Assembly (NCBI GenBank): GCA_018814305.1
Contig: JAHJAA010000031.1
Span: 1-44,048 of the forward strand
Source of the DNA: Pseudomonadota bacterium
GTDB taxonomy: Bacteria; Desulfobacterota; Desulfobulbia; Desulfobulbales; JAGXFP01
DNA: 44,048 bases
Direction: 5' to 3'
This document shows, piece by piece, positions 4,669-35,524 of this stretch. How positions within the stretch are numbered: the stretch's first letter is position 1; each line of letters opens with the position of its first letter. The position numbers and the translations under genes are program-made. The notes below the pieces were generated by a model. The model did no database searches, was not told where the DNA came from, and saw nothing but the letters and a program-made list of their open reading frames with translations.

Positions 4669-4672
4669 CGGG

Positions 4673-6256: not shown

Positions 6257-6265
6257 GAGTCTTTA

Positions 6266-9259: not shown

Positions 9260-10455
9260 TGATCCCCAAAATTATTAAAACAGAAGAAGAATACGAAGCC
9301 ACTTTGGCACGCATAGACGAGCTCATGGCTGCAACGTTTGGAACTCCAGAGGGCAATGAGCTTGAATTGCTGGTGACTCTGGTAGAACTCTATGAGGCCG
9401 CGGCCTATCCCATCGGTCTGCCAGATCCGATTGAAGCCATCAAGTTTCGCATGGAGCAGCTGGGCCTGAAACAGAAAGATTTGGTCCCTTTTTTCGGCAG
9501 CCGTGGGAGAGTATCAGAAGTTCTTTCCGGCCATCGGCCCCTGAGCCTGGCTATGGTCCGCAAGCTCCATGTCGGTCTGGGTATCCCGGCGGAAGTGCTG
9601 TTGCAGGAACCTGGGGCGGAAGTCCCCGCTTCCGTGGGTGAAATGGATTGGGGAAAATTTCCCCTTGGAGAAATGCTGAAACGAAGATGGCTTGATTATG
9701 CCGGAAACTTGACCGACGCCAAGGCCTCAGCCGAGGAATTGATCTCCACCTGGGCGGCCCCCCTTGGCGATTTTGCCTTTCAGCAGCAAGCCCAGCTTCG
9801 CCAGCATATCAGGGGTAACGGGCAAACGGATGACTATGCCCTGACTGCCTGGAGGATCAGAATTTCCCTCCTGGCCATGGAGCAGGACCTGCCTGCATAT
9901 CAGCCGGAGACGATAAATCAAGATTTCGCCCACGAATTAGTCAAACTTAGTTTTTTAAAAGATGGTCCGCTTCTGGCCCGCGAATTTCTTCAGAAAAACG
10001 GTATTCGTTTTGTCGTTGAGCCGCATCTTCCCAAGACCCACCTTGATGGCGCCGCTCTGCGTTTACCAGACGGTGGTCCGGTTGTCGCTATGACCCTCCG
10101 CTATGACCGGATCGATTATTTCTGGTTTACACTCTGCCACGAACTTGCCCACCTTGCTTTGCATCAGGGTGAAGACGGTTGGGAGGTTTTCCTGGACGAT
10201 CTGGAAAGCACAGATCTAACCGATATCGAGGGTGAGGCAGATCAATGGGCCGCCGAAGCTCTTATTCCTGGCAAAATATGGAAAGCATCGAGCTTGACTC
10301 AATCGCCAACTGCAACGGGAATTGTCGAATTTGCAACAAAACACCGGGTCCACCCTGCTATCCCAGCAGGACGTATTCGCCGTGAACGAAGGAATTACAA
10401 AGTATTCAGCCAACTCGTTGGTAACGGTCAGGTCAGGAAGCTTTTTCTTACTTGA
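9259..10455 (+). CDS. HigA-like HTH-XRE antitoxin fused to ImmA/IrrE (COG2856, M78-like) Zn-metallopeptidase domain
   Basis: The N-terminal HTH_XRE reads LGLKQKDLVPFFGSRGRVSEVLSGHRPLSLAMVRKLHVGLGIPAEVLL. The C-terminal half carries HEXXH (CHELAHLALH) plus a downstream E, typical of ImmA/IrrE peptidases. The ATG at 9259 is preferred over the in-frame GTG at 9256 used by the ORF track. Confidence 0.8.
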   Translation: MIPKIIKTEEEYEATLARIDELMAATFGTPEGNELELLVTLVELYEAAAYPIGLPDPIEAIKFRMEQLGLKQKDLVPFFGSRGRVSEVLSGHRPLSLAMVRKLHVGLGIPAEVLLQEPGAEVPASVGEMDWGKFPLGEMLKRRWLDYAGNLTDAKASAEELISTWAAPLGDFAFQQQAQLRQHIRGNGQTDDYALTAWRIRISLLAMEQDLPAYQPETINQDFAHELVKLSFLKDGPLLAREFLQKNGIRFVVEPHLPKTHLDGAALRLPDGGPVVAMTLRYDRIDYFWFTLCHELAHLALHQGEDGWEVFLDDLESTDLTDIEGEADQWAAEALIPGKIWKASSLTQSPTATGIVEFATKHRVHPAIPAGRIRRERRNYKVFSQLVGNGQVRKLFLT

Positions 10456-10650
10456 TTTGGCTGCGCAGGGCTGGGGTTGGACCACGCTAATTAATTGAAA
10501 GAACAAAATGATTCCCCGGAGGACTCCGGTCAAAACAGAAAACCCGCGACTCCAAAGGGAGGGCGGGTTTTATTCTTTCCAAATCAAGGGCAACTATTTC
10601 ACTCACTACTGCCCAATCAGGCGCGATTAAGCACCGAGTTTTCTACATGT

Positions 10651-12255
10651 TCACTTTCGCTCCGGCTTCGGTTTTTCAGCCGGCTTCGATTTTCCTGATG
10701 ACGAGTCCACCGGACCTGTTTGAGCCGGATTGCCCGCCCCGGCGGTCTCTGCAATCTCCCCCAGATACTTGGGCAACTCAATCCCTGCCATACTCGCCAC
10801 ATCATGCAGAGGTGGCAGGCTCTTGACCAGTCCGGCGAGGAAATTAGCAGTAGAGGTGCCGTCCTTGCCACCATTGGCCGAATCCCAGACCGTGACCTTA
10901 TCGATCTTGATGTTGCGAATGGCCTCAACCTGAAGCTTGACGATCTCCTCAATCTTTTCGGTCATCAGCAGCGTGGCGACCGCCTTGGCATCACCGTTAC
11001 ACCCCTTGACCAAGCTCAGGTACCCGGCGGCCTTGGAGTCCAGAACCTTTCTAATACCCTCAGCCTCAGCCTGATATTTGAGCAGGACCCCATCGGCCTG
11101 CCCCTTGGCAATCCGGCGGATCTTCTCGGCCTCGGCCTCAGCGGCAATCTCAACCTTTCTCTTATTGATCTCCTGGCGAACCACTTCCTCGGCATTCAGA
11201 CGCTCCTGCTCCGCCAGGTACTGGGCCTTCTGGATCTCCACCTCGGCCTCGCGCCGTGCCACCTCACCCCGCTGGAGGGCGGCGGCCTGCTTGACGGTCA
11301 GCTGGGCGTTGGCGTCGGCGATATCGGCCTTGGCCCGATTCTCGCCATCCACCGCCTGAGCTTCCTGCTGATGGACGTAAACCCGCTGATCGGCTTCGGC
11401 CTTCTTCTGACCCTTTTGCGATTCAGCGACGTTCTCGGCCACCCGGATCTCTTGTTCCCGATTGGCCTCGGCTTCACCGATGGTGGCGGCGGCCTCCTGT
11501 TGCTGAACAAAGACCCGCTGATCGGCCTCCGCCTTTTTCTTACCCTTTTCCGACTGGGCGGCATTTTCAGCCACCCGGATATCTTTTTCCCGATAGGCCT
11601 CGGCCTCACCGATGGCACCCAATTTCTCCTGATCAGCCACATCGACCTTGGCCTGATTGATGGCCTCGGCCGCCGCCTTCTTCCCGATGGAATCGATATA
11701 CCCCGACTCATCGGTGATATCGGTGATATTGACATTGATCAAGTACAGGCCGATCTTATTAAGTTCTGGAGCAACATTCTTGCGAATCGAATCCAGAAAG
11801 CGCTCCCGATCCTGGTTGATCTCCTCAATGGTCAACGAGGCAACAGTGAGCCTGAGTTGACCGAAGATGATCTCCTTGGCCATCTCCTCAATTTCCGTCT
11901 GAGACAGGTGCAGCAGACGCTCAGCGGCGGAGGTCATGACCTCGGGTTCGGTGCTGATCCCCACCGTGAAGGTTGAGGGCACATTGATCCGGATATTCTG
12001 CATGGAAAGGGCTTTCTGCAGAGGGATGGAGATGGTCATCGGGGTCAAACTGATATAGGCATAATCCTGGATCAGCGGCCAGATCAAAGCGCCGCCGCCG
12101 TGGATACAACGAGCCGATTGGCCCACCCCTACCTTACCGTAGACCACCAGGATCTTGTCCGATGGGCAGCGCTTGTAACGCGAGGCCAAGAAGATGATGG
12201 TCGAAAAAACCAGAATCAGAAAAGCAATAATGGGCAGAATCCAGAAATTAAACAT
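10651..12255 (-). CDS. Flotillin-like SPFH/band-7 protein (YqiK/FloT family) with long coiled-coil
   Basis: An N-terminal TM helix is followed by an SPFH domain and a long Ala/Glu/Gln-rich coiled coil that contains a 43-aa tandem duplication. AGGAG RBS. It is co-operonic with the nfeD-like gene upstream. Confidence 0.85.
   Translation of the reverse strand: MFNFWILPIIAFLILVFSTIIFLASRYKRCPSDKILVVYGKVGVGQSARCIHGGGALIWPLIQDYAYISLTPMTISIPLQKALSMQNIRINVPSTFTVGISTEPEVMTSAAERLLHLSQTEIEEMAKEIIFGQLRLTVASLTIEEINQDRERFLDSIRKNVAPELNKIGLYLINVNITDITDESGYIDSIGKKAAAEAINQAKVDVADQEKLGAIGEAEAYREKDIRVAENAAQSEKGKKKAEADQRVFVQQQEAAATIGEAEANREQEIRVAENVAESQKGQKKAEADQRVYVHQQEAQAVDGENRAKADIADANAQLTVKQAAALQRGEVARREAEVEIQKAQYLAEQERLNAEEVVRQEINKRKVEIAAEAEAEKIRRIAKGQADGVLLKYQAEAEGIRKVLDSKAAGYLSLVKGCNGDAKAVATLLMTEKIEEIVKLQVEAIRNIKIDKVTVWDSANGGKDGTSTANFLAGLVKSLPPLHDVASMAGIELPKYLGEIAETAGAGNPAQTGPVDSSSGKSKPAEKPKPERK
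11353..11613 (-). repeat. In-frame tandem duplication (2 x ~129 nt) inside the flotillin coiled-coil
   Basis: The protein repeats are IGEAEAYREKDIRVAENAAQSEKGKKKAEADQRVFVQQQEAAAT and IGEAEANREQEIRVAENVAESQKGQKKAEADQRVYVHQQEAQAV. The nucleotide copies are visibly similar (...gatctcttgttcccgattggcctcggcttcaccgat... / ...gatatctttttcccgataggcctcggcctcaccgat...). Confidence 0.6.
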
Positions 12256-16382: not shown

Positions 16383-18593
16383 ATGATAAGCCAACAACTT
16401 GAAATCGCTCTGGTTAAAGCCATCCGGGAAGCCAAAGACCGCAGGCATGAACACGTCACGGTCGAGCATATCCTCTACGCGCTGCTCCATGAAGAATTAA
16501 CCCAGGAAATCATCACCGCCTGTGGCGGCAATCTCGATAATCTAAAAGATAAACTGGAAGGTTTTTTTGCCCAGAATCTAAAAAAAATCAGCGCCGATAT
16601 CTCTGCGGAACCGGTGCAAACCATCGGTTTCAACCGGGTCCTGCAGCGGGCCATCTCCCATGTCCAGAGCTGCGGTAAAAAAGAAGTGGATGCCTCTGAT
16701 GTTCTGGTGGCCATCTTTGCCGAACCGGATTCCTATGCCGCCTATTTCCTGCGGGGAGAAGGCCTGAAACGCTTGTCCGTGGTCGAATACCTCTCCGCCG
16801 CTCATCCCTCACCCGGAACCATCAAGCCCCAGGAAGAAAAAAGTGGCGCCGCCCAGACCGATCTTGATCGGTTTACGGTCAACTTTGCCGAACGGGCCGC
16901 CAAGGGCCTGATCGATCCCCTGATCGGCCGATCCAAAGAACTCCACCGGATGATGCAGATCCTCAGCCGACGCCGGAAGAACAATCCCTTGCTGGTCGGT
17001 GAACCGGGAGTGGGCAAAACCGCCATCGCCGAAGGACTGGCCCTGGCGATCCACGACAAAAAAGTCCCTGAACTCTTACAGGATATCGAAATCCGCCTGC
17101 TGGACCTGGGCGGCCTGATGTCCGGGACCAAGTACCGCGGCGATTTTGAGCAGCGGATGAAGGCGGTTATCAACGGAGTGGAAGAGCAGGGTAATATCAT
17201 TCTGTTCATTGATGAGATCCATACCATTGTCGGGGCCGGATCCACCACCGGCAGCAGCATGGATGCCTCCAACCTTCTGAAACCAGCCCTGCAGGCCGGT
17301 TCCTTGCGCTGTATCGGTTCGACGACCTATGAAGAATTCAAGAATCATATCGAAAAGGATCGGGCCCTGGCCCGGCGCTTCCAGAAGATCGACGTGCCCG
17401 AACCCACTGAACAGGAAAGCTTTTCCATCCTCAAAGGGTTGCGCAGCCGTTACGAAGAGCATCACGGGGTCCGCTACTCCACCGCCTCCCTCAAGGCCAT
17501 GGCTGAACTCTCCTCCCGCTATATCAGCGATCGCTTCCTGCCCGACAAGGCCATTGACGTGCTGGACGAGGTGGGCGCAGCCTTCCGACTCTCCCCGACT
17601 CCCCGGAAATCAAAGGTCATAACCGTACGGGATGTGGAAGAGGTAGTTTCGAAGATGACCCGGGTCCCGGCCCGCCGAGCCGGCGCCTCGGATATTGAGC
17701 ATTTGCGGAATCTGGACGGTGCCTTAAAATCGGTTATCTTCGGGCAGGACCACGCCATTGAAGCCATGGTCACCGCAATCAAGCGCTCCCGGGCCGGACT
17801 CAAACAACAGGATAAACCAACCGGTTCCTTCCTGTTCGCCGGACCCACCGGGGTCGGTAAAACCGAGGTGGCCCGGCAGTTGGCTACGGCCCTGGGGGTC
17901 CACTTCGAACGGTTCGACATGAGCGAATACATGGAAAAGCATGCGGTGGCTCGGCTGATCGGCGCCCCTCCCGGCTATGTGGGCTTCGACCAGGGCGGTC
18001 TCTTAACCGAGGCGGTCCGCAAACATCCATACTGCGTCTTGCTGCTTGATGAACTGGAAAAGGCCCATCCGGAGATCTTCAGTATCCTCCTCCAGATTAT
18101 GGATCATTCGTCACTGACCGACAACACCGGGCGCAAGGCCGATTTTAGAAATGTAATCCTGGTCATGACCACCAACGCCGGTGCCCGGGAGATGAACGAA
18201 CGGGCCATCGGCTTCATCGGTGACGGGCGGGGCCGTGAACAGAAGGCGATCAAGGATCTCTTTGCCCCTGAATTCCGCAACCGGCTTGACGGGATCATTA
18301 CCTTTGAATCCCTGACTCACGAGGTAATGAAACGGATCGTCGACAAGATGATCGGAGAACTGGAAACCCAACTCAATGAGCGCAAAGTTGCCATCACCCT
18401 GACCCCTGCCGCCCGAAAATGGTTTGCCGAAAAAGGGTACGACCCAAGTTTCGGAGCCAGACCGCTCCGCCGCCTGATCATGCAGGAAATCGGCGATCCC
18501 CTGGCCGAAGAAATTCTCTTCGGACGCCTGACCAAGGGCGGCACGGTCCAGGTGGGGAGTAAGCAACAGAAGATCGTTTTAGACTTCACCTAA
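16383..18593 (+). CDS. clpA: ATP-dependent Clp protease ATP-binding subunit ClpA
   Basis: A Clp N-domain is followed by two AAA+ modules (GEPGVGKTAIAEGLA and GPTGVGKTEVARQLA). There is no ClpB middle domain, and the gene follows clpS. Confidence 0.9.
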   Translation: MISQQLEIALVKAIREAKDRRHEHVTVEHILYALLHEELTQEIITACGGNLDNLKDKLEGFFAQNLKKISADISAEPVQTIGFNRVLQRAISHVQSCGKKEVDASDVLVAIFAEPDSYAAYFLRGEGLKRLSVVEYLSAAHPSPGTIKPQEEKSGAAQTDLDRFTVNFAERAAKGLIDPLIGRSKELHRMMQILSRRRKNNPLLVGEPGVGKTAIAEGLALAIHDKKVPELLQDIEIRLLDLGGLMSGTKYRGDFEQRMKAVINGVEEQGNIILFIDEIHTIVGAGSTTGSSMDASNLLKPALQAGSLRCIGSTTYEEFKNHIEKDRALARRFQKIDVPEPTEQESFSILKGLRSRYEEHHGVRYSTASLKAMAELSSRYISDRFLPDKAIDVLDEVGAAFRLSPTPRKSKVITVRDVEEVVSKMTRVPARRAGASDIEHLRNLDGALKSVIFGQDHAIEAMVTAIKRSRAGLKQQDKPTGSFLFAGPTGVGKTEVARQLATALGVHFERFDMSEYMEKHAVARLIGAPPGYVGFDQGGLLTEAVRKHPYCVLLLDELEKAHPEIFSILLQIMDHSSLTDNTGRKADFRNVILVMTTNAGAREMNERAIGFIGDGRGREQKAIKDLFAPEFRNRLDGIITFESLTHEVMKRIVDKMIGELETQLNERKVAITLTPAARKWFAEKGYDPSFGARPLRRLIMQEIGDPLAEEILFGRLTKGGTVQVGSKQQKIVLDFT

Positions 18594-23418: not shown

Positions 23419-25020
23419 TTATGCTGCAGCCCTGGAATTTCCAAAATCACCCTCTGCGTCAAATGGAATAAAGGACTGATGGGCAATGGCCACCGGGGCC
23501 GGGTGCCGAGCCGAAGAGCGTTTTATAGCCGGGTATTTCACAACCCTGCTAAAATCCGGGCCTGCCCGATGATAGGCTATTCCCTTACTTCCGACCATGG
23601 CAATCAGATCCTGAATGGTGCCCTTCATCAATTCAGCCTGGGCGCTCAATTCCTCGGCGGCCGCAGCTGACTCCTCGGCCGTTGCGGCATTTTGCTGGGT
23701 GACCATATCCATCTCAGTGACCGCTTTATTGATTTGACCCAAACCCTGGGCCTGTTCGACCGAGGCCCCGCTGATCTCGTTGACCAACTGACTGATCTTT
23801 GCCGAACGTGAGACCAACTCACCAAAGGCTTCAGTGGTAGTTAGCAACAGGTTGCTGCTGTCATTGACTCGTTTTACCGTACCTTCGATAAGTTCTGAGG
23901 TGTTCTTGGCCGCTTCCGCCGAACGCATGGCAAGATTACGCACCTCGTCGGCCACCACTGCAAAACCGGCACCGGCTTCCCCGGCCCGGGCCGCTTCAAC
24001 CGCTGCATTCAAGGCCAACAAATTGGTCTGGAAGGCTATTTCATCGATGGTCTTGATAATTTTGAAAGTGGTCTCGCTTGCCGTGGAAACCTCATCCATG
24101 GCCTTATTCAACTCAGCCATAGAGGAATTCACCCGATCGACCACTTGCATGGTCTCCTTCATGATAGCGGCGGCTTCTTTGGCATTGCCAGCATTCTGCC
24201 TGGTCATGGAGTTGAGTTCCTCCAGCGAGGAAGAAGTCTCTTCTAAGGCGGCGGCCTGCTCTGAGGCCCCTTCCGCCAGCATCTGGCTTGAACTGGCAAC
24301 CTGACCGGAAGCCGAGGCAACCTGGGCCGAGCCGTCGTTAAGATTCTCGATGGCTCGATTCAGAGGCCGGGTTATCTGCCGGATAAGGATCACCGCAAAG
24401 GCTATCCCGAAAAAAAATACACCAAGACTGACAATTGCCATGATGGTTTTTGAATTCCGACTCTGACCGAGGGCCTCGCCGGCCACAGCGTTAGCCTCTT
24501 CCGTGTTGAGTTTTTCAAAAGCCTCCACCGCTTTTCTAAAGGTTCCGGCCGCTTCCGCAGCAGCATCAGCCCGGCCGTCTATTGCCGCCTGATTCTTCGT
24601 TGCAACGGTCTCAATCAATCTTTTGCCCTCTGCTACAAATAAATCATGGGCGGTGGCCACCTGTTCGATTCTGGTCAGCCAATTCTTTTTCACCAAGTCC
24701 TTATCCTGACTGATAATTTTTTTAATTTGCGCAAAATTCCGGTCTTCAGCTGAATCTAGCTCGTTGAAACGTCGAACGTATTGCTCTTCTCCATGCAAAG
24801 CATAGAGGTTCGCCGACATCTCCTGATCCAGAGCCGTTTGCGAGACCGACGCCGTCAAGAGGGTCAGGGGCAGATGGGTGGATTCCAGATCACTGACTCC
24901 GACATCCACCAGGATTGCCTTCCAGAAGCCAACTCCCCCGATGGTGATGGCCAGGATCACAAGAAACCCAAAACCCAATTTGATTTTCGTACCAATGGTT
25001 ACTTTATTGAAATTCAACAT
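23419..25020 (-). CDS. Methyl-accepting chemotaxis protein (TM - periplasmic 4HB-like sensor - TM - HAMP - MCP signalling domain)
   Basis: An N-terminal TM helix is followed by a ~170-aa sensor domain, a second TM helix, HAMP, and the conserved MCP signalling region (...[28 protein letters not shown]...). Confidence 0.85.
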
Positions 25021-25038: not shown

Positions 25039-25287
25039 TCAGCTGTCAAATGACCTGCTGCCTAGTAATGATTGTTTCACCCCTTTCAGATAATGAGGGG
25101 ATTGCAGCCGTGGGGTCACTTTCTGCATCCCGATACTCTCCTTAACCTGCATGATGCCAATGCCATATTGCTCGGCTCCCAGCTCAAAGGTCAGGTATTT
25201 TCCCTCCCTGGTGCGATTTTCGAGTTGTTCAGCCATGGTTTCTCCCTTCCGATTGAACTGGCATCCCCCTGGAGGTTGTCTCAACAC
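25039..25287 (-). pseudogene. cheW: CheW-like gene remnant (N-terminal ~60 aa of a CheW domain, truncated at the junction with the MCP gene)
   Basis: KYLTFELGAEQYGIGIMQVKESIGMQKVTPRLQSPHYLKGV aligns with E. coli CheW residues ~18-60. After KGV the frame diverges and stops 19 codons before the MCP ATG in the same frame. The remaining ~100 aa of a CheW domain are absent. The true start is probably the M at 25236. Confidence 0.5.
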
Positions 25288-25733
25288 TCACAGGTCATCA
25301 CTCCTTTTTTGCCAACCTTTTCCAAACGCCCAGCCTGATTCATTTTCTTTTTCTCAATACTTCGGATGGCCGTGACTATCTCCCGGGGCAACACCGGTTT
25401 CTTATAAAAACAATCAAACTCTGGCCTCAACAACAAATCCGGCAGATCTGCATTACCAAATCCCGATACCACCAGGACCGCTATCTCCGGAAAATCCCGA
25501 TTGAGCCAGGCAATTAAGGTAAAGACGTTATACCGTGGTCCCTTGATATCAAAGAGGATTAACCCGAACTGGGTCCCAGCCTGAGCAGCTGCCAGGACCA
25601 GATCTTTGGCTACTGAAACGTCCTGACTGATATCAACTGCAAAACCCTCACGTTTCAAATGGCGTTTTATTGACTGACCCATGATTTCATGGTCAGCCAC
25701 TACCAGTATTTTTTGGATCTTAGTTAGCTTCAT
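25281..25733 (-). CDS. Stand-alone CheY-like response-regulator receiver protein
   Basis: The receiver-domain pattern (ILVVADHE..., phospho-acceptor D in LILFDIKGP, conserved K in FYKKP) is present. Its stop overlaps the CheW-remnant start. Confidence 0.75.
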   Translation of the reverse strand: MKLTKIQKILVVADHEIMGQSIKRHLKREGFAVDISQDVSVAKDLVLAAAQAGTQFGLILFDIKGPRYNVFTLIAWLNRDFPEIAVLVVSGFGNADLPDLLLRPEFDCFYKKPVLPREIVTAIRSIEKKKMNQAGRLEKVGKKGVMTCEC

Positions 25734-25817
25734 GGTTTATACGCGACCAGAATAGAGGTTCTTGCTTGTGACCAGCCCGACTCGGCTTGCACCACATTGT
25801 GGTACCACTTAAGATAA

Positions 25818-25832
25818 GCAATGGTGGTGCCA
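25818..25832 (-). promoter_or_regulatory. σ54 (RpoN) -24/-12 promoter TGGCAC-N5-TTGCT ~85 nt upstream of the CheY-like gene
   Basis: The minus strand reads 5'-TGGCACcaccaTTGCT-3' (plus-strand 25832→25818), an exact GG-N10-GC spacing with both consensus hexamers. Confidence 0.6.
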
Positions 25833-25921
25833 AAGAATAAAAAAACGCCAACAAACCACATAACTATACGAATTATTGTGTTTTTCTATTAAAAAACAAG
25901 CGATCAACAGAGGGATGGTAC

Positions 25922-26049
25922 CGACATGAATGTCGTCAAACAGGGAGTATGGAGCATTGAGGAGAGCTGGCGGGGACAGTATATTATTGCCAGAATACGG
26001 CCAAACAGGGAACGACGTAAACGTCGGACCGAAGCGACCTAAATGTCGC
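25922..26049. promoter_or_regulatory. Three CGACA-N4-6-TGTCG inverted repeats (candidate enhancer-binding-protein UAS) 90-215 bp upstream of the σ54 promoter
   Basis: The repeats are cgacaTGAAtgtcg (25922-25935), cgacgTAAAcgtcg (26013-26026) and gcgacCTAAATgtcgc (26034-26049). The last overlaps the 3' end of the NtrC-type activator gene. Confidence 0.4.
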
Positions 26050-27406
26050 CAAGCAGGGAGATCCAGCGGGAATCCTTTTTCATTTCAGCAATCTTCCGCT
26101 GAACCTGACGGACCGTGATCCCAAGGACCGCCGCCGCCTGCTTACGATCGCCTCCGGTCTGGGTGAGAACATAAGCGGTTTGCAGTTCGGCGTCCTCCTT
26201 AAGACTGCAGAGCTTTCTACCAAAGACAGGGCCCGGAACGGTTTTCCCGCCAAGGGCCTCGGGGGACACATAGGGAACATTGGTCATGAGCAACGCCGTT
26301 TCCACCTTCTGGGCCAGTTCTCGGATATTGCCCGGATAGCTCTGCCGTTGCAGGAGATCAAGGGCCTCGGGAGAAAAACCTTTGATGGTTTTGCCATGAC
26401 GCAAAGCCGCTTTTTTTAAAAAATGATCGGCAAGGAAGGGTATATCGCCCTCCCGCTCCCGGAGGGGAGGCAGATGCAGATGGATGGATTTAAGACGGTA
26501 CAAAAGATCCAGCCGGAAGGTCCCCTGCTGACAAGCTTTGTCCAGATCCGCATTAGTCGCGGCAACAATCCGGACATCCACCGTGATCGGGTGGGGATCG
26601 CCAAGCCGCGTCACCTTGCCGTCTTCCAGCACCCGCAAAAATTTGGCCTGGAGCAATGGGGAGAGTTCGCCGATTTCATCCAGAAAAAGAGTCCCGCCAT
26701 CGGCCTGTTCAAAATACCCAGGATAATCCATGGTGGCGCCGGTAAAAGCGCCTTTGACATGACCGAAAAAATGGCTCTCAAAGAGAGACTCGGATACCGA
26801 AGCAACATTCACCGGCACGTAGGGACCGCCGGGAACCGGCCCGACCTCATGAATGGCTCGAGCCAGAAGTTCCTTGCCGGTACCAGACTCCCCGGTGATC
26901 AACACCGGATTGCCACTTTTGGCCATGGTCTGGGCAAACAACAGAAGCTCCTTCATCCGGGGACAATGGGTGATAATCGGGTCAAAGGCCTCCGACAGGG
27001 TTGCAGATGTGCCAGAACTCGCTCCGGTAAGGCCACTCAACAAGGCCCGCCGTTCAAAGGCATGTTCCAGGACCAGGATCAACCTCTCATGATCAACCGG
27101 TTTGACCAGATAGTCATAGGCACCGAGCCGCAAGGCCTTGACCGCCGTATCAACGTCATCAACGGCGGTGAGCATAATGAATTCGGTATGGGGACTATAC
27201 GGCTTGGTTGCCTCCAGCACCTGCAGGCCATCCATTTCCGGCATCAGTAGATCCAGAAAGACCACATCGAAAGTTCCTGATTGAATCCGTGCCAAAGCGG
27301 CAGGAGACTGATCACATGTTTCCACATCCCGGTAGCCGCAGCGTTTTAAGAGCCTCTGCAGCGAACTCAGGGCCATTGGTTCGTCATCAACCATCAATAT
27401 CTTCAT
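26039..27406 (-). CDS. σ54-dependent Fis-family response regulator (NtrC-type: REC - AAA+ σ54-interaction - HTH)
   Basis: The REC domain reads MKILMVDDEP...VVFLDLLMPEMDG. The AAA+ domain carries VLITGESGTGKELLARAIH, the ESHFFGHVKGAFTGA (GAFTGA) motif and the arginine finger region. The C-terminal HTH reads AAAVLGITVRQVQRKI. It overlaps the kinase gene by 4 nt. Confidence 0.9.
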   Translation of the reverse strand: MKILMVDDEPMALSSLQRLLKRCGYRDVETCDQSPAALARIQSGTFDVVFLDLLMPEMDGLQVLEATKPYSPHTEFIMLTAVDDVDTAVKALRLGAYDYLVKPVDHERLILVLEHAFERRALLSGLTGASSGTSATLSEAFDPIITHCPRMKELLLFAQTMAKSGNPVLITGESGTGKELLARAIHEVGPVPGGPYVPVNVASVSESLFESHFFGHVKGAFTGATMDYPGYFEQADGGTLFLDEIGELSPLLQAKFLRVLEDGKVTRLGDPHPITVDVRIVAATNADLDKACQQGTFRLDLLYRLKSIHLHLPPLREREGDIPFLADHFLKKAALRHGKTIKGFSPEALDLLQRQSYPGNIRELAQKVETALLMTNVPYVSPEALGGKTVPGPVFGRKLCSLKEDAELQTAYVLTQTGGDRKQAAAVLGITVRQVQRKIAEMKKDSRWISLLGDI

Positions 27407-30129
27407 AACCTTTGCCTGCCGATTGAATTGATCATTTCGCTGAGCTTGGGTAGATCCAGGGGCTTCGTTATAAAATAATCCGGGGGCCGGGATTGCTCTG
27501 GAAGATACCGCGCCTCATCAGGCTCCCCGGTGATGAGAATAACCGACATCAGGGGAAATCTTTCTTTTATTTGCTGCAGTACCTGCCAACCAGTGATGCC
27601 GGGCATGGCAATATCGCTTAAGACCAGATCGATCTCAGGGTGGTCCTCTAAAAAACCGAGGACCTCATGCCCGTTTTCCATGATTTCCATCGGCATCTTC
27701 TTCACGCCAATAAAAAATGATTTCAACAGACCCAACATCATCGGATCATCGTCGATACAGAGCATGGTCGGTCGTAATTCAAGCAGGCCTTGCCGCCGGT
27801 CAACCGGGAGGAAGACCGTAAACTTGGTTCCCAGACCGGGCCGTGACATTACCGCAATCCGACCATTATGCTCCTTGATCAGACCGTATGAGACGGAAAG
27901 CCCCAGGCCGGTGCCGCCATGATCACGCTTGGTGGTAAAGAATGGATCGAAAATATGGGGCACATCATCCGCTGAGATACCTCGTCCGTTATCTTCCAGC
28001 TCAATAAGAACGGCATGTAAGCGTTTGACATACCGGCTGCGAATAAAAATCACTCCACCCTCTTTACTGGGGATTGATTGAGCTGCATTCAAGATCAGAT
28101 TGGCGACGACCTGTTCCAGTTTCTGGTAATGACCGTAAAATTGTGGCAGTCCATCGGCCAATTCCATGGTGATACGGCCAACCAGCTTCCGGGCCTGGGC
28201 CCCGACAATGGCCAAGGAATCTTGAATGATATTGTTAATCTCGACCAGCTTATCGGGCACCGTCTCGTCCAATCGGGCAAAATCCTTAAGCTTTCCAACA
28301 ATGGTATTGATCCGGTCGGAGCCGGTCTTGATGGCGGCAATAATTTCTCCCATCTCGTCAGTCATTTCCGCCAAGGTAATATTGCCGGCCTTTTTCTCGG
28401 GGTGCTGCCGGCAAAATTCATTGATTATCGGTAAAAACGTCTCCCAGGACTCCTCCAGCAACGGAACATTATAGGTGATGAAACTATTGGGATTGTTGAT
28501 TTCATGGGCGACGCCGGCCACCACCTGGCCCAGTGAGGCGAGTTTATCCGCCTGGATTACCTGTTGGAGTCGCTGCTCCGACTCGAGCTGTAATTTTTTT
28601 TCCTCGGAAATGTCCTGCCAGGTCCCGGTGATATAGTACAATTCGCCCTTGGGACCTCGCCTTGCCCGAAGGTAGTTGGCAAACCAGGTGTAGGAACCAT
28701 CCGCCACCTGAAAACGGTATTCACCTTTCCATTCATCTTCCTTACGCAGTTTCTCAAGACAGGATATGGCCAGAGACCTGTCCTCCGGGAAGAGATGTTT
28801 TTCCCAGAACCGGGGATCCTGAAGAAATTGCTCAGGGGTATAACCGGTAATCTCCTTGACCACATTGCTCATATGGGAGAAGGGAAAATCAGGCTCAGCC
28901 GTTCTGGTAAAAGGGATAATCGGCAAGGAATCCAACAGGAGGTTCAACTGTTCGTTGGTCCGTGCCAACTCGGCCTGGACGAATTCGGCCTCACGGCTGT
29001 CTCGTCGTGATTGAATGCCGTACGAAAGATTGTTCGCCAGTTCCTCAAGCAAATCAATCGCTTCATCATCAAATTCACTGGGACTTCCGCCATGGATAAT
29101 CAAAGAGCCGACCGGCCCGGCCCTCAAGAATAAAGGAAGGATCAAAACCGAGCCACACCCCTGTTTTATCGCTTCCCCTCCCCAGGGAGGATGATCTGCG
29201 CCAAAAATTGTCATCAAATCCTGCACCAGCATCCGTTTGCCGGAAACTACGACCCGGCCCAGCGGATCATCGTCCACGGGAAAAGGCTCCTCCCAATTAT
29301 CCGGCACGGTCACGAGACAACTTTCTTCACCGTGAAGGGCCATGGGCTTTACTACCATAGGCTGACACTCAGGCATGGCATAAGCGATCCAGGCCATCCG
29401 ATATCCACCGATGGCCACCACCAGCCGACAGATATCGTGAAGAAGATCATCCTCGGTAGCGGCCCGGATCAAGGCTTCGTTCCCTTTGCTCACCACCTCC
29501 AGAGCTTTGCTGCGACGGCTCAGAGCCTCCTGGGCCCGCTTCCGCTCGGTAATATCGGTGGCAATCTCCAGACGGACCAAGCGGTTATCGACCCACTCAA
29601 TTGCCCGGTCAACAATGTGATACCAGCGATTATTGATCGTGTTGCAGAATTCCCAGACAAACTCGCCAGCAGGTTCTCCGTTTTCATCCAGTAGTTTATC
29701 ATTTGTGCAGAAGGAACAAGGACCATCCTGCCCATTTTGCAAGGTCTGCCAGCAGATGGTCCCTTCGATATCCCCAAAAATATCCCGGATGTATTGGTTG
29801 ACAAAGAGCAGTTCATGACTTTCCATGTCAGTCACATAGACTGCGGCATCCAGACTGTCGAGAATTTTCATAATTTTATGCTGGAAGACCATTGAGGTAC
29901 TCTCTCCTTGAATAATGCTCTGTATCGCGATCAGCAATTCTTGCATCCACATTTCATGATAGAGGGCAAAAGAGTAGGAGTCAAAGAGATGATGACATCT
30001 TGAAATCTGGGGTATACAGGTTTTGCGGAAAAGTGCCGCGGAACGGGTCATGGCCTGCCGTAACAGACCCGGGTGAGTAGATGGTTGTCGACGGATCTTT
30101 TCCAGGGCGTGCGCGTAAGCGTGAAGCAC
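27403..30129 (-). CDS. Hybrid sensor histidine kinase (Cys-rich PAS - GAF - PAS - HisKA - HATPase_c - C-terminal receiver)
   Basis: The H-box reads LGQVVAGVAHEINNP, the G-box reads HGGTGLGLSVS, and the C-terminal REC reads LCIDDDPMML...LVLSDIAMPGITG. The N-terminal PAS carries C-W-Q...GPCSFC. Confidence 0.85.
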   Translation of the reverse strand: MLHAYAHALEKIRRQPSTHPGLLRQAMTRSAALFRKTCIPQISRCHHLFDSYSFALYHEMWMQELLIAIQSIIQGESTSMVFQHKIMKILDSLDAAVYVTDMESHELLFVNQYIRDIFGDIEGTICWQTLQNGQDGPCSFCTNDKLLDENGEPAGEFVWEFCNTINNRWYHIVDRAIEWVDNRLVRLEIATDITERKRAQEALSRRSKALEVVSKGNEALIRAATEDDLLHDICRLVVAIGGYRMAWIAYAMPECQPMVVKPMALHGEESCLVTVPDNWEEPFPVDDDPLGRVVVSGKRMLVQDLMTIFGADHPPWGGEAIKQGCGSVLILPLFLRAGPVGSLIIHGGSPSEFDDEAIDLLEELANNLSYGIQSRRDSREAEFVQAELARTNEQLNLLLDSLPIIPFTRTAEPDFPFSHMSNVVKEITGYTPEQFLQDPRFWEKHLFPEDRSLAISCLEKLRKEDEWKGEYRFQVADGSYTWFANYLRARRGPKGELYYITGTWQDISEEKKLQLESEQRLQQVIQADKLASLGQVVAGVAHEINNPNSFITYNVPLLEESWETFLPIINEFCRQHPEKKAGNITLAEMTDEMGEIIAAIKTGSDRINTIVGKLKDFARLDETVPDKLVEINNIIQDSLAIVGAQARKLVGRITMELADGLPQFYGHYQKLEQVVANLILNAAQSIPSKEGGVIFIRSRYVKRLHAVLIELEDNGRGISADDVPHIFDPFFTTKRDHGGTGLGLSVSYGLIKEHNGRIAVMSRPGLGTKFTVFLPVDRRQGLLELRPTMLCIDDDPMMLGLLKSFFIGVKKMPMEIMENGHEVLGFLEDHPEIDLVLSDIAMPGITGWQVLQQIKERFPLMSVILITGEPDEARYLPEQSRPPDYFITKPLDLPKLSEMINSIGRQRL

Positions 30130-30422
30130 AGGACACGCCCAAATGGCGCTAAGTTTAGCATATTCTGCAAAATATTTGCTCAGGATAGAGAATCCCTCTT
30201 ATTTTAGTCCTCGGCGAGTCCATCAACCGAGACTTATACCTCCTATATTTCACCAGCGCTTTTCCGCTGCGCCCCCCTTTTTCACGGTTTACCCTCGTCG
30301 ATCTTTCCCGCCAAAAGCTTGATCTCTAATACCCTAAGATATATATTGTCGGTTCCGACTTGAATAAAGCCGCTAAACTTGATTTATAGAACCCTTTTGA
30401 ACTTTTATTATTAAGCAGGTTC

Positions 30423-30887
30423 ATGCCATTGAGACCGTTCCTCAACATATTTTCCCACCTGATCGCTGTATTGCTTGTTTTTCAGGGCAGCATTGCTTAC
30501 GCGCTCCCCGAAAGCATTCATCTGAATGTATGCTTTAGCTCTGATGGGAGAATCAACCTTACCCCGGATCTCTGCCACACTGATCCATCGAAGCAACAGA
30601 TCGGTCGACCGGACCTTTTTATTTCGCTCAATGAGTCCCATGTCGACTGCCTTGACTTGGAAATCGGCTGCCTTTCGGGGGGGGAACTGCGCCCAACCAG
30701 TTCAGTAAAATGTCCACTTAAAGCAAGGATCAAAAAAAGCACCCGAGCCGGCTTGGCAGCTTCACCTGACTTCTTGTCTGCAAGCAGGATACTTCCACCA
30801 TCAACTCAGACGCAAACCGCAAGAACCAACCAGATATTCCCGTCCTCACTTCTCTCTTTCCTTCGGACCATAGTGCTCCTGATCTGA
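30423..30887 (+). CDS. Hypothetical small secreted protein (predicted signal peptide, Cys-containing)
   Basis: The ORF sits in an otherwise empty 900-bp intergenic region. It has an N-terminal hydrophobic signal-like segment (LIAVLLVFQGSIAYA|LPE). The RBS is weak and no homology is recognised. Confidence 0.3.
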   Translation: MPLRPFLNIFSHLIAVLLVFQGSIAYALPESIHLNVCFSSDGRINLTPDLCHTDPSKQQIGRPDLFISLNESHVDCLDLEIGCLSGGELRPTSSVKCPLKARIKKSTRAGLAASPDFLSASRILPPSTQTQTARTNQIFPSSLLSFLRTIVLLI

Positions 30888-31039
30888 TACGCCCCTCAAG
30901 TTCTCGCTTTCAACCCCAATAAATTAAGTGCAGGACAGCTATAAAGATCCATTGGCTAACCTTTTCCGTCCGGTATGCGCTTAAAATGTTTCGAAAAATC
31001 AAACCATTAAACTCATAACTCGTTTTGGAGCGATACATT

Positions 31040-31477
31040 ATGCACCAATCGGATAAAGCATCAGACCCGAACTGGGTCCTGCTCTTTGCCTGCTGGCTTA
31101 TAGCCACTGTTTCGACTCTGGGAAGCCTGTTCTTTAGTTATGTCATGGAATTCGCCCCATGTGTTTTATGCTGGTACCAGAGGATATTCCTTTTCCCTCT
31201 AGTCATCATCCTGACCAGGGGGTTGTTCCCCTTTGACAGAAGTGTTGTGAAATTTGCCATTCCACTCGCCATTCTCGGTTGGCTGACGGCTGTCTATCAT
31301 AATCTGCTGTTTTCAGGGATCATCCCTGAAAAAATTCAGCCTTGCAGCCAAGGGGTATCATGCACTGAAGAGTACATTGATCTCTTCGGGTTCCTCTCCA
31401 TTCCGATGCTTTCACTCCTTTCATTGACACTTATAACTGCCCTATTAATTTTGCTGCACAGGAGGATATCCAAATGA
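31040..31477 (+). CDS. dsbB: Disulfide bond formation protein B (DsbB/BdbC family)
   Basis: The first Cys pair lies in FAPCVLCWYQRIF, with four TM helices. The second Cys pair lies in QPCSQGVSCTEEY. The ATG at 31040 is preferred (GGAG 10 nt upstream); the track start at 31025 is TTG. Confidence 0.8.
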   Translation: MHQSDKASDPNWVLLFACWLIATVSTLGSLFFSYVMEFAPCVLCWYQRIFLFPLVIILTRGLFPFDRSVVKFAIPLAILGWLTAVYHNLLFSGIIPEKIQPCSQGVSCTEEYIDLFGFLSIPMLSLLSLTLITALLILLHRRISK

Positions 31478-32130
31478 AACAGCAGCTGATCTTCGGAGTA
31501 ACAAGTGTTGCGTTACTCTTAGCCTTTATGTCCGCAAGTTTTTACTACAAAGACCAACAGACCAAAAAATTCGGCTTTATGGCCGCTGAGAGCGCTGAAA
31601 CCTTTATCAGGGATTATTCCCAGTCACTTGGCAGTGAGGAAGCGAAAGTATATCTGATCGAATTCATGGATCCAGCCTGTGAAACCTGCGCCTCCTTCTC
31701 TCCGTTCGTCAAAAAAATAATGAACGCCTATCCCGGCAAGATCAAATTGGTTTTACGATATGCCCCCTTTCATGATGGTGCCGATTACTTTGTGAAGATC
31801 CTGGAAGCCGCAAAAAAACAAGGGAAGTACTGGGAAACTCTTGAGGTGATGTATACGTCGCAACCACACTGGGCCAGTCATCATAATCCCCAACCCCAAA
31901 AAATCTGGCAATTTTTACCCCAAGCGGGTCTCGATCTTGCTCAGTTGGAAAAAGATATGAATGATCCGAAGATCGTAAAAATCATTGAACAGGATCTTGC
32001 CGATGCCAAAAAATTGAACGTCCGCAAAACACCAGGATTTTTTGTTAATGGGAAACCGCTCCAGACCTTTGGCTCCCAACAATTACTGGACTTGATTCGA
32101 TCTGAGTTGCAGGCGAATTATCCCAACTGA
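31474..32130 (+). CDS. dsbA: DsbA/BdbD-like thiol:disulfide oxidoreductase (thioredoxin fold, CxxC = CETC), signal-anchored
   Basis: A signal/TM segment is followed by DPACETCASF and a DsbA-like helical insertion. Its start overlaps the dsbB stop (ATGA). Confidence 0.75.
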   Translation: MKQQLIFGVTSVALLLAFMSASFYYKDQQTKKFGFMAAESAETFIRDYSQSLGSEEAKVYLIEFMDPACETCASFSPFVKKIMNAYPGKIKLVLRYAPFHDGADYFVKILEAAKKQGKYWETLEVMYTSQPHWASHHNPQPQKIWQFLPQAGLDLAQLEKDMNDPKIVKIIEQDLADAKKLNVRKTPGFFVNGKPLQTFGSQQLLDLIRSELQANYPN

Positions 32131-32169
32131 TCTTAAACTGAAAGGTTCAGAAAGAAAGAGGAACTCCAC

Positions 32170-32679
32170 ATGATGAAAAAGCTTTCACTTATCTTGCTCT
32201 TCTGTATCCCCCTGTTCATTGCTGCCTGCGGCAAGGAACCCAAAATAGCCACAGTGGGGGAACCCGCCCCCGATTTTACTCTTGTTGATGTGCAGGGCAA
32301 AACCTGGACCCTCTCCCAGCTTAAGGGCCAGGTGATATTTATTAATTTTTGGGCAACCTGGTGTCCACCCTGCCGTGAAGAGATGCCGTCAATGCAAAGG
32401 CTGCTCACCAAGATGCCCACAGATAAATTTAAAATGCTTGCTGTCCTCCATAAAGATACATCGGAAGCTGCAGATCAATTTGCGAAAAAACTGAATCTGA
32501 CAATACCGATCCTGCTCGACCCGAACAACCAAACCGGGTCAAAGTATGGTCTCACCGGAGTACCTGAAACCTACATCGTTGACAAACAGGGGGTCCTTCG
32601 AGAAAAGGTGATCGGGCCGGCCCAGTGGGATTCGCAAAATATTCAGAAGGTACTAATGGGTTACATTAACCAGCAGTGA
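32170..32679 (+). CDS. TlpA/ResA-like periplasmic thiol-disulfide oxidoreductase lipoprotein (redoxin family)
   Basis: Lipobox FIAA|C. The thioredoxin active site is FINFWATWCPPCREEMP. AGAGGA RBS. Confidence 0.8.
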   Translation: MMKKLSLILLFCIPLFIAACGKEPKIATVGEPAPDFTLVDVQGKTWTLSQLKGQVIFINFWATWCPPCREEMPSMQRLLTKMPTDKFKMLAVLHKDTSEAADQFAKKLNLTIPILLDPNNQTGSKYGLTGVPETYIVDKQGVLREKVIGPAQWDSQNIQKVLMGYINQQ

Positions 32680-33049: not shown

Positions 33050-35524
33050 TTGAAACTGACCCTTTCTTTGACCAAAAAATATCTTTTATTGAGTCTGGCC
33101 ATCTTATTATTTATCTTCGGCCTGGTATTTTCCTCTTTTGTCCTGACCGAAAACATAAAAGGCGAGAGCCAGAAAATAAATTTGGCCAGTCGCCAGCACC
33201 TGCAACTGATGCGCATCTCATCTCTGGTGCATTTTTTTGTCAATCCCAGCCCATTGAAAGTCGGAATGAGTGGTCCCGACTCGGTCCAGAAAATACAAAA
33301 GGAAGCACAGGTATACGAAACCGTGCTCTACGGACTTAAGGATGGGGACCCAGCCTTGGGGCTCACCCCCATTGCCTTGCATGATCCGGATTCCTTAGTC
33401 CAACTGGATCTGGTCATCAAACATTGGAACAAATCACAAAAACCAATTTTACAAAAAATATTAATCACCCCTGTCTCAGAGCGGCAGGAACTGTGTAATC
33501 CCTGCCATAGCGCCTTCAGGGAACATATCAATGAGATTGAACTGTTGGCCAGCACCATGAGTAACAACTACAATCAACACCTGAAATCTTTTAGCCGGTT
33601 CAGATTTTTTGCCCTGCTTTTCTTCCCGATATTACTGCTCGGCATAACCTGGTTCATCCGCCGAAAACTCATTCTGCCGGTTAAGAAATTAAAAGAAGCC
33701 ACCGATTTGATCGAGCAGGGAGATTTCGAAGTCAGGTTACCAGTGCTCAGCAGTGACGAGATCGGCTATCTGACCATGTCCCATAATCGCATGGCAGAAA
33801 AACTAAAATTATTATTCCAGGAAAAAGAAGACAACCTGAATCAGCTTACGTTTTTTAATCAGGAGATACTGGCCCGAGAAAGCGATCTGAAAAGCTCTAT
33901 CCAGAACCAGGGAATAGTAAATGCCATCCTGCAGATATCCTTGAGTCCGATCTCTCTGGTTAACCAACTACAGCTTGCCTTACCAGTAATTCTGTCAATC
34001 GGGCGCGTCGAATTATTATCGAGCGGAGTTATATTCTTAGCCAGTGAGAACGCTGATGAGCTACAGATGGCTGCCTTCCACGGCATCGGCAAAACAAAGG
34101 CGGCAGCCTGTCGTCGAGTACCTTTTGGCGTCTGCCACTGTGGTCGTGCCGCTGCCAAAGGTGAAATTCAATTTGCGTCATGCGTTGACCATAAACACGA
34201 GATCGATTGCTTCGAACGTGACCCCCACGGCCATTATTGCGTCCCGATTATATCTGGGAATAAACTTTTAGGCGTGATCTGTGTTTACGTCGAAGAAGGG
34301 CATGAACGAAAGGCGGAAGAAGAAGAAATTCTGCTGACCATTACCAATATCCTGGCGGGCATCATTGAACGTAAAAAGATGGAAGAGCAGTTGGTTCAAT
34401 TGGTTCATGACCTGCAATTAAGCATAAAAAATTTAGACGATGAGAAAATATTTACTGAATCGGTCATCCGCAGTCTAAGCACCGGTTTGATGGTCCTCGA
34501 CCTGGAAGGCAGGATTATTGCTGCCAACCCAAACGGAGACCTTATTCTCAATCAATTTGAACCGGAACCGATTGGCAAAGAACTGGTCTCCGTCCTGGGT
34601 GACTCTGCAGTACAAGCAATGACTGGTATCCACGACGAGGTATCACACGTATCAGCTGAAATCACCCTCCCTTCTCGCAAGGGCACTGAAAGAACCTTGG
34701 GCTTTACCGCCACCAACCGCAAAGACGCGGTAGGAAACAGGGTGGGGATCATCATCTCCTTCAACGACATAACGGAAGACAAGTACTTTCGAAAAGAAAT
34801 AGAAAACATGAACCGGCTCAGCACGGTGGCCGAAATTGCCTCTGCCGTGGCCCATGAGGTTAGAAATCCCCTGGCTGGGATTAAAACCATGGCCCAGGCC
34901 ATTGACGAACATTTGAGCGAAAATGACGACAAGAAGGAATACATAATCCGAATAATCCGACAGATTGACCGCCTGAACATTCTCCTTACCAATTTTTTCT
35001 CCTATGCCAGACCGGCGGAACCCAAAAAAGTTCAGACCTCCCTGCAGGATATAATAAGCGAAACCAAGCCCCTGATCAGCAGCAGACTGTACAAGAAGGG
35101 CATTAAACTTAAGGAACAATATGAAGAGGACCTGCCCCTGGTCAATGTCGACCCCAACCAGATCCAGCAGGTATTCCTGAACCTGATGTTGAATTCAATT
35201 GAAGCATTCAAACAAAGCGGCGTTATTGAAATAATCGCTGAAAAATTTGATGCCACCAAAAAAGAAATATACTCCCTCACATATCCTGAGTTGAAAGATA
35301 GTAGCAACTACGTGTTAGTTCACTTTCGAGATACCGGCCCAGGGTTGGACGATACAATAGCCGAAAAAATATTTGAACCTTTCTTCACCACCAAACATAC
35401 CGGTTCCGGATTGGGACTGTCCATCGTCTACCGAATACTGAAAGAGAACAACGCAATCATCCATCTTGACCGTAGTGTAAAAGAAGGTACTGCCTTTATG
35501 ATGATTTTCGAAACAGGGAAATAA
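33050..35524 (+). CDS. Membrane sensor histidine kinase (periplasmic CXXCH-containing domain - TM - HAMP - GAF - PAS - HisKA - HATPase_c)
   Basis: The H-box reads AVAHEVRNPLAGI, the G-boxes are FRDTGPGL / GSGLGLSIV, and HAMP follows TM2. The periplasmic domain between TM1 and TM2 carries CNPCH (nt 33494-33508). The start is TTG at 33050, with no in-frame ATG before the first TM helix. Confidence 0.85.
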   Translation: MKLTLSLTKKYLLLSLAILLFIFGLVFSSFVLTENIKGESQKINLASRQHLQLMRISSLVHFFVNPSPLKVGMSGPDSVQKIQKEAQVYETVLYGLKDGDPALGLTPIALHDPDSLVQLDLVIKHWNKSQKPILQKILITPVSERQELCNPCHSAFREHINEIELLASTMSNNYNQHLKSFSRFRFFALLFFPILLLGITWFIRRKLILPVKKLKEATDLIEQGDFEVRLPVLSSDEIGYLTMSHNRMAEKLKLLFQEKEDNLNQLTFFNQEILARESDLKSSIQNQGIVNAILQISLSPISLVNQLQLALPVILSIGRVELLSSGVIFLASENADELQMAAFHGIGKTKAAACRRVPFGVCHCGRAAAKGEIQFASCVDHKHEIDCFERDPHGHYCVPIISGNKLLGVICVYVEEGHERKAEEEEILLTITNILAGIIERKKMEEQLVQLVHDLQLSIKNLDDEKIFTESVIRSLSTGLMVLDLEGRIIAANPNGDLILNQFEPEPIGKELVSVLGDSAVQAMTGIHDEVSHVSAEITLPSRKGTERTLGFTATNRKDAVGNRVGIIISFNDITEDKYFRKEIENMNRLSTVAEIASAVAHEVRNPLAGIKTMAQAIDEHLSENDDKKEYIIRIIRQIDRLNILLTNFFSYARPAEPKKVQTSLQDIISETKPLISSRLYKKGIKLKEQYEEDLPLVNVDPNQIQQVFLNLMLNSIEAFKQSGVIEIIAEKFDATKKEIYSLTYPELKDSSNYVLVHFRDTGPGLDDTIAEKIFEPFFTTKHTGSGLGLSIVYRILKENNAIIHLDRSVKEGTAFMMIFETGK

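Follow-up and report, generated by a model that had tools for sequence, protein, structure and literature searches.

What is the function of a 305-bp gap that separates the gene for an NtrC-type activator from the gene for a single-domain receiver, and which protein acts there? The gap lies in a stretch of 44,048 nt of DNA, the whole of which we analysed and refer to as the window. A first-pass annotation had read the gap as a σ54 promoter with sites for the neighbouring activator. We consider it likely that the gap is indeed a σ54 promoter region, and that the adjacent NtrC-type activator acts there through three dyads on an operon encoding the receiver, CheW and a chemoreceptor. This interpretation is supported because the elements are conserved in related loci, and not because of a pattern seen in a single sequence.

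The kinase and activator genes

The kinase, activator, dyads, promoter, receiver, CheW fragment and chemoreceptor all lie on the minus strand of the window (Table 1). The stop codon of the kinase gene overlaps the ATG of the activator gene (ATGA), and the kinase gene is found 5′ of the activator gene in 12 of 12 orthologous genome loci. In Pfam searches the activator scores 99 bits for Response_reg, 205.6 bits for Sigma54_activat and 27.1 bits for HTH_8 (against a cut-off of 22), and it contains the phospho-acceptor Asp52, a Walker A motif (GESGTGKE), a Walker B motif (DE) and the GAFTGA motif, such that every feature expected of an NtrC-type (REC-AAA+-HTH) enhancer-binding protein is present. 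In an alignment of 11 orthologues D8, D52, T80, K102, GESGTGKE, DE and GAFTGA are invariant, and the pattern LGIT-RQ-QRK is conserved in the helix-turn-helix. The Pfam domains thus confirm what had been proposed for the two neighbouring genes, namely that they encode a σ54 activator and a hybrid PAS/GAF kinase. We note that the activator falls below every NCBIfam equivalog cut-off (371 against 714 bits for AtoC, 355 against 559 bits for NtrC and 340 against 760 bits for ZraR) and that the kinase reaches 178 bits against the AtoS model, for which the cut-off is 646. We therefore rejected assignment of the activator to a named family (AtoC, NtrC, ZraR or others) and regard it as belonging to an unnamed NtrC-family subfamily.

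Table 1. Features of the predicted circuit, listed in the direction of transcription. The sequences of sites A, B and C are given on the gene strand.
Feature	Position in window	Strand	Description	Basis
Hybrid sensor histidine kinase	27403..30129	-	908 aa; GAF, PAS, HisKA, HATPase_c, C-terminal receiver	Pfam
NtrC-type σ54 activator	26039..27406	-	455 aa; REC, Sigma54_activat AAA+, HTH_8	Pfam
Predicted upstream activating site A	26035..26048	.	CGACATTTAGGTCG	CGAC-N6-GTCG dyad
Predicted upstream activating site B	26013..26026	.	CGACGTTTACGTCG	CGAC-N6-GTCG dyad
Predicted proximal activating site C	25922..25935	.	CGACATTCATGTCG	CGAC-N6-GTCG dyad
AT-rich spacer, site C to promoter	25833..25921	-	A/T tracts	Composition
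σ54 -24/-12 element	25818-25832	-	TGGCACCACCATTGC(T)	Exact TGGCAC-N5-TTGC
Predicted 5′ untranslated leader	25734..25806	-	~73 nt	Predicted start to receiver ATG
Single-domain receiver, first target gene	25281..25733	-	150 aa	Pfam Response_reg, 37.6 bits
Truncated CheW	25039..25236	-		Pfam CheW, profile positions 1-41 of 138
Chemoreceptor, intact	23419..25020	-	533 aa; 4HB_MCP sensor, two transmembrane segments, MCPsignal	Pfam, MCPsignal 146 bits

No convincing transmembrane segment was found in the kinase, in which a marginal hydrophobic stretch occurs only inside the GAF domain; judged from its sequence, the kinase is cytoplasmic. The route of phosphorylation is uncertain because the kinase is a hybrid and no Hpt domain is visible for it. 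We also note a cluster of Cys residues (C-x22-C-x2-C, GTICWQTLQNGQDGPCSFCTND) in the N-terminal PAS-like region of the kinase, at residues ~126-151 (window ~29680-29760, minus strand), that might be the binding site of a metal or redox cofactor, and may hint at the signal that is sensed.

Other genes of the window lie on the plus strand. Divergent from the kinase gene, positions 30423-32679 encode a 154-aa ORF followed by DsbB, a DsbA-like thioredoxin and an AhpC/TSA-family redoxin, and a second sensor kinase (HAMP-GAF-PAS-HisKA-HATPase) is encoded at 33050-35524. Elsewhere are found a gene for a 740-aa protein with a papain-family cysteine protease domain and a MopE-type metal-binding motif (677-2899), a restriction-modification cluster (3757-8902) comprising a Mrr-type endonuclease, an N6/N4 DNA methylase and a ResIII helicase-type subunit and, after this cluster, a gene for an IrrE/Peptidase_M78 protein (9256-10455).

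Promoter element and dyad sites in the window

The exact TGGCAC-N5-TTGC element that had been reported about 85 nt 5′ of the CheY-like gene is present, the C of its TTGC (25818) lying 85 nt ahead of the receiver ATG (25733). The element (TGGCACCACCATTGCT, 25832-25817 on the minus strand) agrees with TGGCAC-N5-TTGCW and has GG and GC exactly 10 bp apart, as required of a σ54 promoter. It is intergenic, it points at the downstream receiver gene, and equivalents of it are kept in orthologous loci; transcription is predicted to start near 25806, ~12 nt past the GC. Although TGGCACCACCATTGC is the sole exact TGGCAC-N5-TTGC in the window, a lone exact match is weak evidence by itself because 0.13 such matches are expected and 13 of 100 shuffles contain at least one. 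A TGGCAT-like string near 30415-30428 was rejected as a σ54 promoter because its spacing is GG-N9-GC.

Between site C and the promoter the DNA is 68% AT, against 50% for the window, and the A/T islands of this spacer are partly conserved in an alignment of the clade; it may serve as a DNA bend or loop. The E. coli-type IHF consensus (WATCAANNNNTTR) has no match with one mismatch or fewer in the ~90-bp spacer, and we rejected an IHF site there, AT-richness alone being what stands out. The predicted leader is longer than in the closest relatives, with an insertion relative to them in the clade alignment, and contains no obvious ribosome-binding site ahead of the receiver ATG. An RNA element in the leader was considered and rejected (fold z = -0.45; no match in Rfam). 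No terminator was found between the activator gene and the promoter, so that read-through could also express the receiver-CheW-chemoreceptor operon.

The motif common to the three repeats is CGAC-N6-GTCG. The form first described for them, CGACA-N-TGTCG, is exact at the proximal site but inexact at the other two, whereas their placement 90-215 bp upstream of the promoter holds, with the outer edges of the sites lying 90 to 216 bp 5′ of the -24 element. CGAC-N6-GTCG occurs three times in the 44-kb window, where 0.30 occurrences are expected and none of 100 shuffles reaches three, and it is found nowhere in the 44 kb beyond sites A, B and C. Relative to the predicted start the sites are centred at about -235 (A), -213 (B) and -122 (C). 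A and B are 22 bp apart from centre to centre, or about two helical turns, A and C are 113 bp apart, and 103 bp separate C from the start of the -24 element. An enhancer of the expected kind has at least two dyad-symmetric sites ~80-250 bp upstream of its promoter, and here there are three.

We built a weight matrix from the three window sites alone. One candidate for a further regulon member in the window, a match of 11.9 bits at 17054-17067 (GGACTTTTTTGTCG) inside a ClpB-like gene, was rejected as being at chance level, with 2.4 matches as weak as this expected in shuffles. Autoregulation from 5′ of the kinase gene was likewise rejected, as there are no dyads there.

The output genes in the window

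The receiver is called CheY-like for its architecture only, CheY-specific models having no match to it. Its ORF is uninterrupted, and its product is 48-49% identical to that of the first gene after the promoter in two related loci (L002 and L011) and 33% identical to that in two others (L006 and L010). At the first position of the acidic pocket, which is normally Asp, the protein has Ala (VVADHE), its Response_reg score is low (37.6 bits), and no ribosome-binding site is visible ahead of its ATG; the protein is possibly degenerate, or a pseudo-receiver.

The CheW gene had been described as a remnant, and that description is borne out by a match to profile positions 1-41 of 138 here as against 1-137 of 138 in close relatives, in which CheW is full (163-186 aa). 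When the full-length CheW of L002 (163 aa) is compared with the window by tblastn, residues 3-55 alone align. The window's CheW thus keeps approximately the first 55 of ~163 residues, about a third, and is not a complete adaptor. Since CheW ends at about residue 55 of 163 here and is whole in the relatives, "remnant" is the correct term and the deletion is organism-specific; it ends ~20 nt ahead of the chemoreceptor start, and the same truncation is present in an independent Logan contig that is 100% identical. The chemoreceptor gene is preceded by a strong ribosome-binding site of its own (GAGGGAGG), and its product is 41% identical over its full length to the chemoreceptor of L002.

The output module is damaged in this organism because CheW is truncated, and it is possible, although we regard it as rather unlikely, that the regulatory region is intact while the module that it serves has become a relic in decay and has stopped feeding a chemosensory array. 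What makes such decay conceivable is that a CheW cut to about a third is whole in all close relatives, and that the receiver, with its degenerate acidic pocket, scores 37.6 bits where that of L006 scores 85.5 and has no visible ribosome-binding site. Nevertheless, the chemoreceptor is of full length, is preceded by a strong ribosome-binding site and could rely on a CheW whose gene lies elsewhere; the promoter and sites A, B and C match perfectly, and nothing interrupts the receiver ORF.

The cassette in related loci

We sought the activator in other genomes and in metagenomes. The exact activator protein was found on a Logan contig of run SRR2540949, which matches the window over 8 kb with 100% identity. 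A genome scan gave 12 orthologous kinase-activator loci, with activator identities of 54-79%, in MAGs labelled Desulfurivibrio, Syntrophales/Syntrophaceae, Smithellaceae, Syntrophobacteraceae and unclassified "Deltaproteobacteria", and a metagenome scan that used an alignment of the C-terminal DNA-binding domain as query gave 80 further loci. The sources of the activator subfamily are sediment and activated-sludge metagenome contigs together with labelled MAGs.

The weight matrix, which contains no information from these loci, finds 9 matches in 4.9 kb directly 3′ of the orthologous activator genes and 9 in the other 102 kb of the same loci, an enrichment of ~20-fold just past the activator genes; in 68 paralogue loci the rate is 0.22 per kb. 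Pairs of GAC-N6-GTC dyads 21-23 bp apart occur 54 times across the orthologue loci (546 kb), with 51 of them lying at or overlapping the 3′ end of the activator gene, and 3 times across the paralogue loci (708 kb).

There are 64 non-redundant loci that contain an activator with the same DNA-binding domain and enough downstream sequence. GAC-N6-GTC lies across the 3′ end of the activator gene in 37 of the 64, a second dyad follows 21-23 bp after the first in 36, and a -24/-12 element (at most one mismatch, with the GG and GC of GG-N10-GC fixed) is found at +150 to +350 past the activator gene in 37. The density of -24/-12 elements is 2.9 per kb at +150 to +350 and 0.015 per kb elsewhere, counting both strands, which is a ~200-fold enrichment. 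The distance from the first dyad to the -24 element has its mode at 212-213 bp, found in 20 of the 34 loci where it was measured. The earlier proposal of a σ54 promoter with sites for the neighbouring activator is therefore supported by comparative genomics (20-fold enrichment of matrix matches, 54 versus 3 dyad pairs, and adjacent elements in 37 of 64 loci). In the other 27 loci, whose activators have a related DNA-binding domain, no cassette lies beside the activator gene.

When the window is aligned with its closest relatives, the conserved islands are sites A, B and C, the A/T-rich stretch and the promoter, and the sequence between them has diverged. The spacing seen in the window is repeated in L002, L011/L084, L082 and L005, and also in L008, whose cassette is found 1.3 kb beyond the activator gene. 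Site C occupies the equivalent position in these same loci (L002, L011/L084, L005, L082 and L008) and in a second cassette of L002, and is weaker or a half-site in other clades. We propose YGAC-N6-GTCR as the consensus of the dyad, with CGACAT-N2-ATGTCG as its form in the window's clade. The second cassette of L002 (9905-10200) has sites at 9922, 9944 and 10035 and a promoter at 10139, with the same spacings and an identical TGGCATCCTCCTTGCT; it precedes a second gene for CheW (10149-10709) and has no activator gene beside it, and the regulon of that Desulfurivibrio MAG therefore comprises at least two operons.

The genes that follow the cassette vary. In the window's clade (L002, L011/L084, L082 and L083) they encode a receiver, CheW and a chemoreceptor, with CheW complete, whereas L010 has a receiver, a PAS kinase and a chemoreceptor, and L006 has a receiver (Response_reg, 85.5 bits). 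In other clades the downstream genes encode proteins of 156-282 aa with a weak HisK_N match, or a small conserved peptide containing MESNIVDTMRRYF. We note that a small conserved ORF (…MESNIVDTMRRYFxNDxGKSKGDLEYTIINSVKRYFEGKP), which has no match in Pfam, is found behind the cassette in many loci, ~230-430 nt past the activator stop (L085, L093, L094, L123, L124, L131, L143 and others). In L004 and L008, two loci of Syntrophales type, the same pair of dyads and a -24/-12 element are found 1.3-1.5 kb past the activator gene, ahead of an atpD gene (ATP synthase beta-type subunit), with the cassette at 3233-3452 and the atpD gene at 3527-4912 in L008, and the cassette at 7825-8010 in L004; an N-type ATPase operon may begin with this atpD gene. 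In L004, L008 and also L092 the gap adjacent to the activator gene has no sites, and the paired dyad is found 1-1.5 kb further downstream in the same locus. We rejected a mobile cassette as a strong claim, since the intergenic sequence outside the sites differs between cargo groups, and this difference fits vertical descent with turnover of the cargo.

The sites thus follow the activator and not the downstream genes, and this activator is therefore the best candidate for the protein that binds them. It could still be that the -24/-12 element is functional but that some other regulator binds the dyads, or another activator drives the promoter, with the adjacent activator acting elsewhere. Bacteria of this group have many σ54 activators (PMC4641369), and the 27 loci that have a similar DNA-binding domain without an adjacent cassette would also be explained in this way. 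We nevertheless judge this to be very unlikely, given that the dyads track the activator family across varied downstream genes and are nearly absent from paralogue loci, and that L004, L008 and L092, although their adjacent gap is empty, carry further downstream a paired dyad, which in L004 and L008 has a -24/-12 element after it.

Sites A and B are palindromic and lie at the very end of an activator gene that has no canonical terminator, and the dyads might accordingly be read as hairpins in RNA or DNA, that is, as a weak terminator or as a stabiliser of the 3′ end of the kinase-activator mRNA, instead of as sites bound by a protein. This reading is highly improbable. The stems would be only 4-5 bp and are not followed by a T-run, site C lies ~100 nt past the end of the gene, and the sites of the second L002 cassette and of L004 and L008 are away from activator gene ends. 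Moreover, what is conserved are GAC/GTC half-sites with an AT-rich centre at a fixed phasing of 22 bp, as would be seen with a dimeric helix-turn-helix protein.

Overlap of the distal site with the activator stop codon

Site A covers the last two codons of the activator gene, its stop codon and the next 4 nt (GGC GAC ATT TAG GTCG), an overlap that is absent from the first-pass annotation. In 33 of the 64 non-redundant loci the activator gene ends in GAC-NNN-stop, and GTC follows straight after the stop codon in all 33 of these and in none of the 31 others. The Asp at the third-last codon is conserved, and the penultimate residue varies (L, I, H, F or D) while T occupies the wobble position of its codon in all 33 loci; the stop codon is TAA or TAG in 32 of the 33. 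On this comparison site A is under selection at the level of DNA and is not a by-product of coding, because the wobble T and the GTC after the stop are invariant while the amino acid varies. This pattern is the reverse of the usual conservation of coding sequence, and it fits the AT-rich centre of a dyad site. The idea that site A is conserved merely as coding sequence for the activator C-terminus, with B and C arising by chance, accounts for the overlap with the gene and for the conserved Asp, but it is effectively refuted by the invariant third-base T beside a variable residue and by the GTC after the stop in 33 of 33 against 0 of 31 loci, to which may be added that the dyad also occurs outside coding DNA and that three dyads are present where 0.30 are expected.

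A stop-codon-embedded site is a tidy example of selection at the DNA level overriding codon freedom, and it could be used as a marker for finding the targets of this activator family in metagenomes. We can also imagine, although we think it improbable, that site A has a dual use, in which activator dimers bound at A and B would form a roadblock or insulator that stops read-through or provides feedback on the activator mRNA. Were this the case, the roadblock at A and B would substitute for the missing terminator of the kinase-activator operon, and the overlap with the stop codon would weld the activator gene to a promoter unit of fixed geometry (22, 113 and ~213 bp), which the various lineages have set ahead of differing genes.

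The proposed circuit

Returning to our favoured interpretation, in which the adjacent activator acts through the three dyads on the promoter of the gap, the DNA itself shows that the elements are present, occur non-randomly, are conserved and keep a fixed geometry, and binding, σ54 dependence, the signal and phosphotransfer are what we infer. σ54 RNA polymerase would sit as a closed complex on TGGCAC-N5-TTGC. An intracellular signal would act on the cytoplasmic GAF/PAS hybrid kinase, and this would lead to phosphorylation of the activator at Asp52. The activator would then oligomerise on sites A and B, which, being 22 bp apart, lie on one face of the helix, and on the proximal site C. With the 68%-AT spacer helping the DNA to loop, the GAFTGA loops would contact σ54, and ATP hydrolysis would open the promoter to give a transcript for receiver, CheW fragment and chemoreceptor. 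Phosphorylation, assembly on the sites, looping and contact through GAFTGA are established steps in the action of NtrC-family activators. With the chemoreceptor module under a dedicated two-component switch of this kind, the cell would alter its sensing in response to an internal signal perceived by the GAF/PAS kinase. The description of the locus as a complete circuit is slightly overstated, in that the kinase is a hybrid and no Hpt domain is visible for it. rpoN was not found among the genes of the 44-kb window.

Relation to known systems

Local regulons of σ54 activators have been predicted by comparative genomics in Desulfovibrio vulgaris (Kazakov et al. 2015, PMC4641369), and our reasoning is of the same kind as in that work, which drew on co-localised activator genes, conserved -24/-12 promoters and palindromic upstream sites in sulfate-reducing Desulfobacterota. 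In that study chemotaxis-linked σ54 promoters are listed without predicted upstream sites. The dyad motif was not found in the text of PMC4641369, and a full-text search of a library of papers for the dyad gave unrelated matches only, among them the ComR box of Streptococcus and the DrdI site.

The closest layout is that of E. coli atoSC-atoDAEB, in which co-oriented kinase and activator genes lie directly upstream of a σ54 target operon and AtoC binds palindromic repeats 5′ of the start site of its target (PMC3118216). For the window's activator and kinase, moreover, no named NCBIfam models score higher than AtoC and AtoS, respectively, yet the proteins are not orthologues. The site here is a 14-bp dyad that is present three times, once over the activator stop codon, and not the 2 × 20 bp palindrome of AtoC; the kinase, unlike AtoS, is cytoplasmic, hybrid and GAF/PAS-based; and the targets are signalling genes and not, as in atoDAEB, genes of fatty-acid catabolism. 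Among solved structures the closest are the NtrC-family proteins of Aquifex aeolicus (4l4u, E-value 2e-91; 1ny5, E-value 1e-87), which match over the full REC-AAA+-(HTH) length, although the likeness is at the level of the family only and their targets and DNA sites are unrelated.

The classical σ54 promoter with tandem enhancers is glnAp2 of enteric bacteria, which is controlled by NtrB-NtrC and at which the phosphorylated REC-AAA+-HTH activator oligomerises and contacts σ54 by looping of the DNA. Like glnAp2, the promoter region described here has several dyads 100-250 bp upstream of a GG-N10-GC element, and its tandem sites share a helical face. It differs from glnAp2 in its recognition sequence, YGAC-N6-GTCR, in its sensor and regulon, and in a geometry that is fixed at 22, 113 and ~213 bp. 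Set beside these systems it is a standard circuit of σ54, activator and enhancer that leaves the understanding of σ54 control unchanged. Its points of interest are the stop-codon-embedded site, the rigid geometry over many lineages, the turnover of downstream genes and the damaged CheW in this organism. What it adds is a clean local regulon, with a proposed motif (YGAC-N6-GTCR) and a three-site geometry, for an uncharacterised subfamily of σ54 activators.
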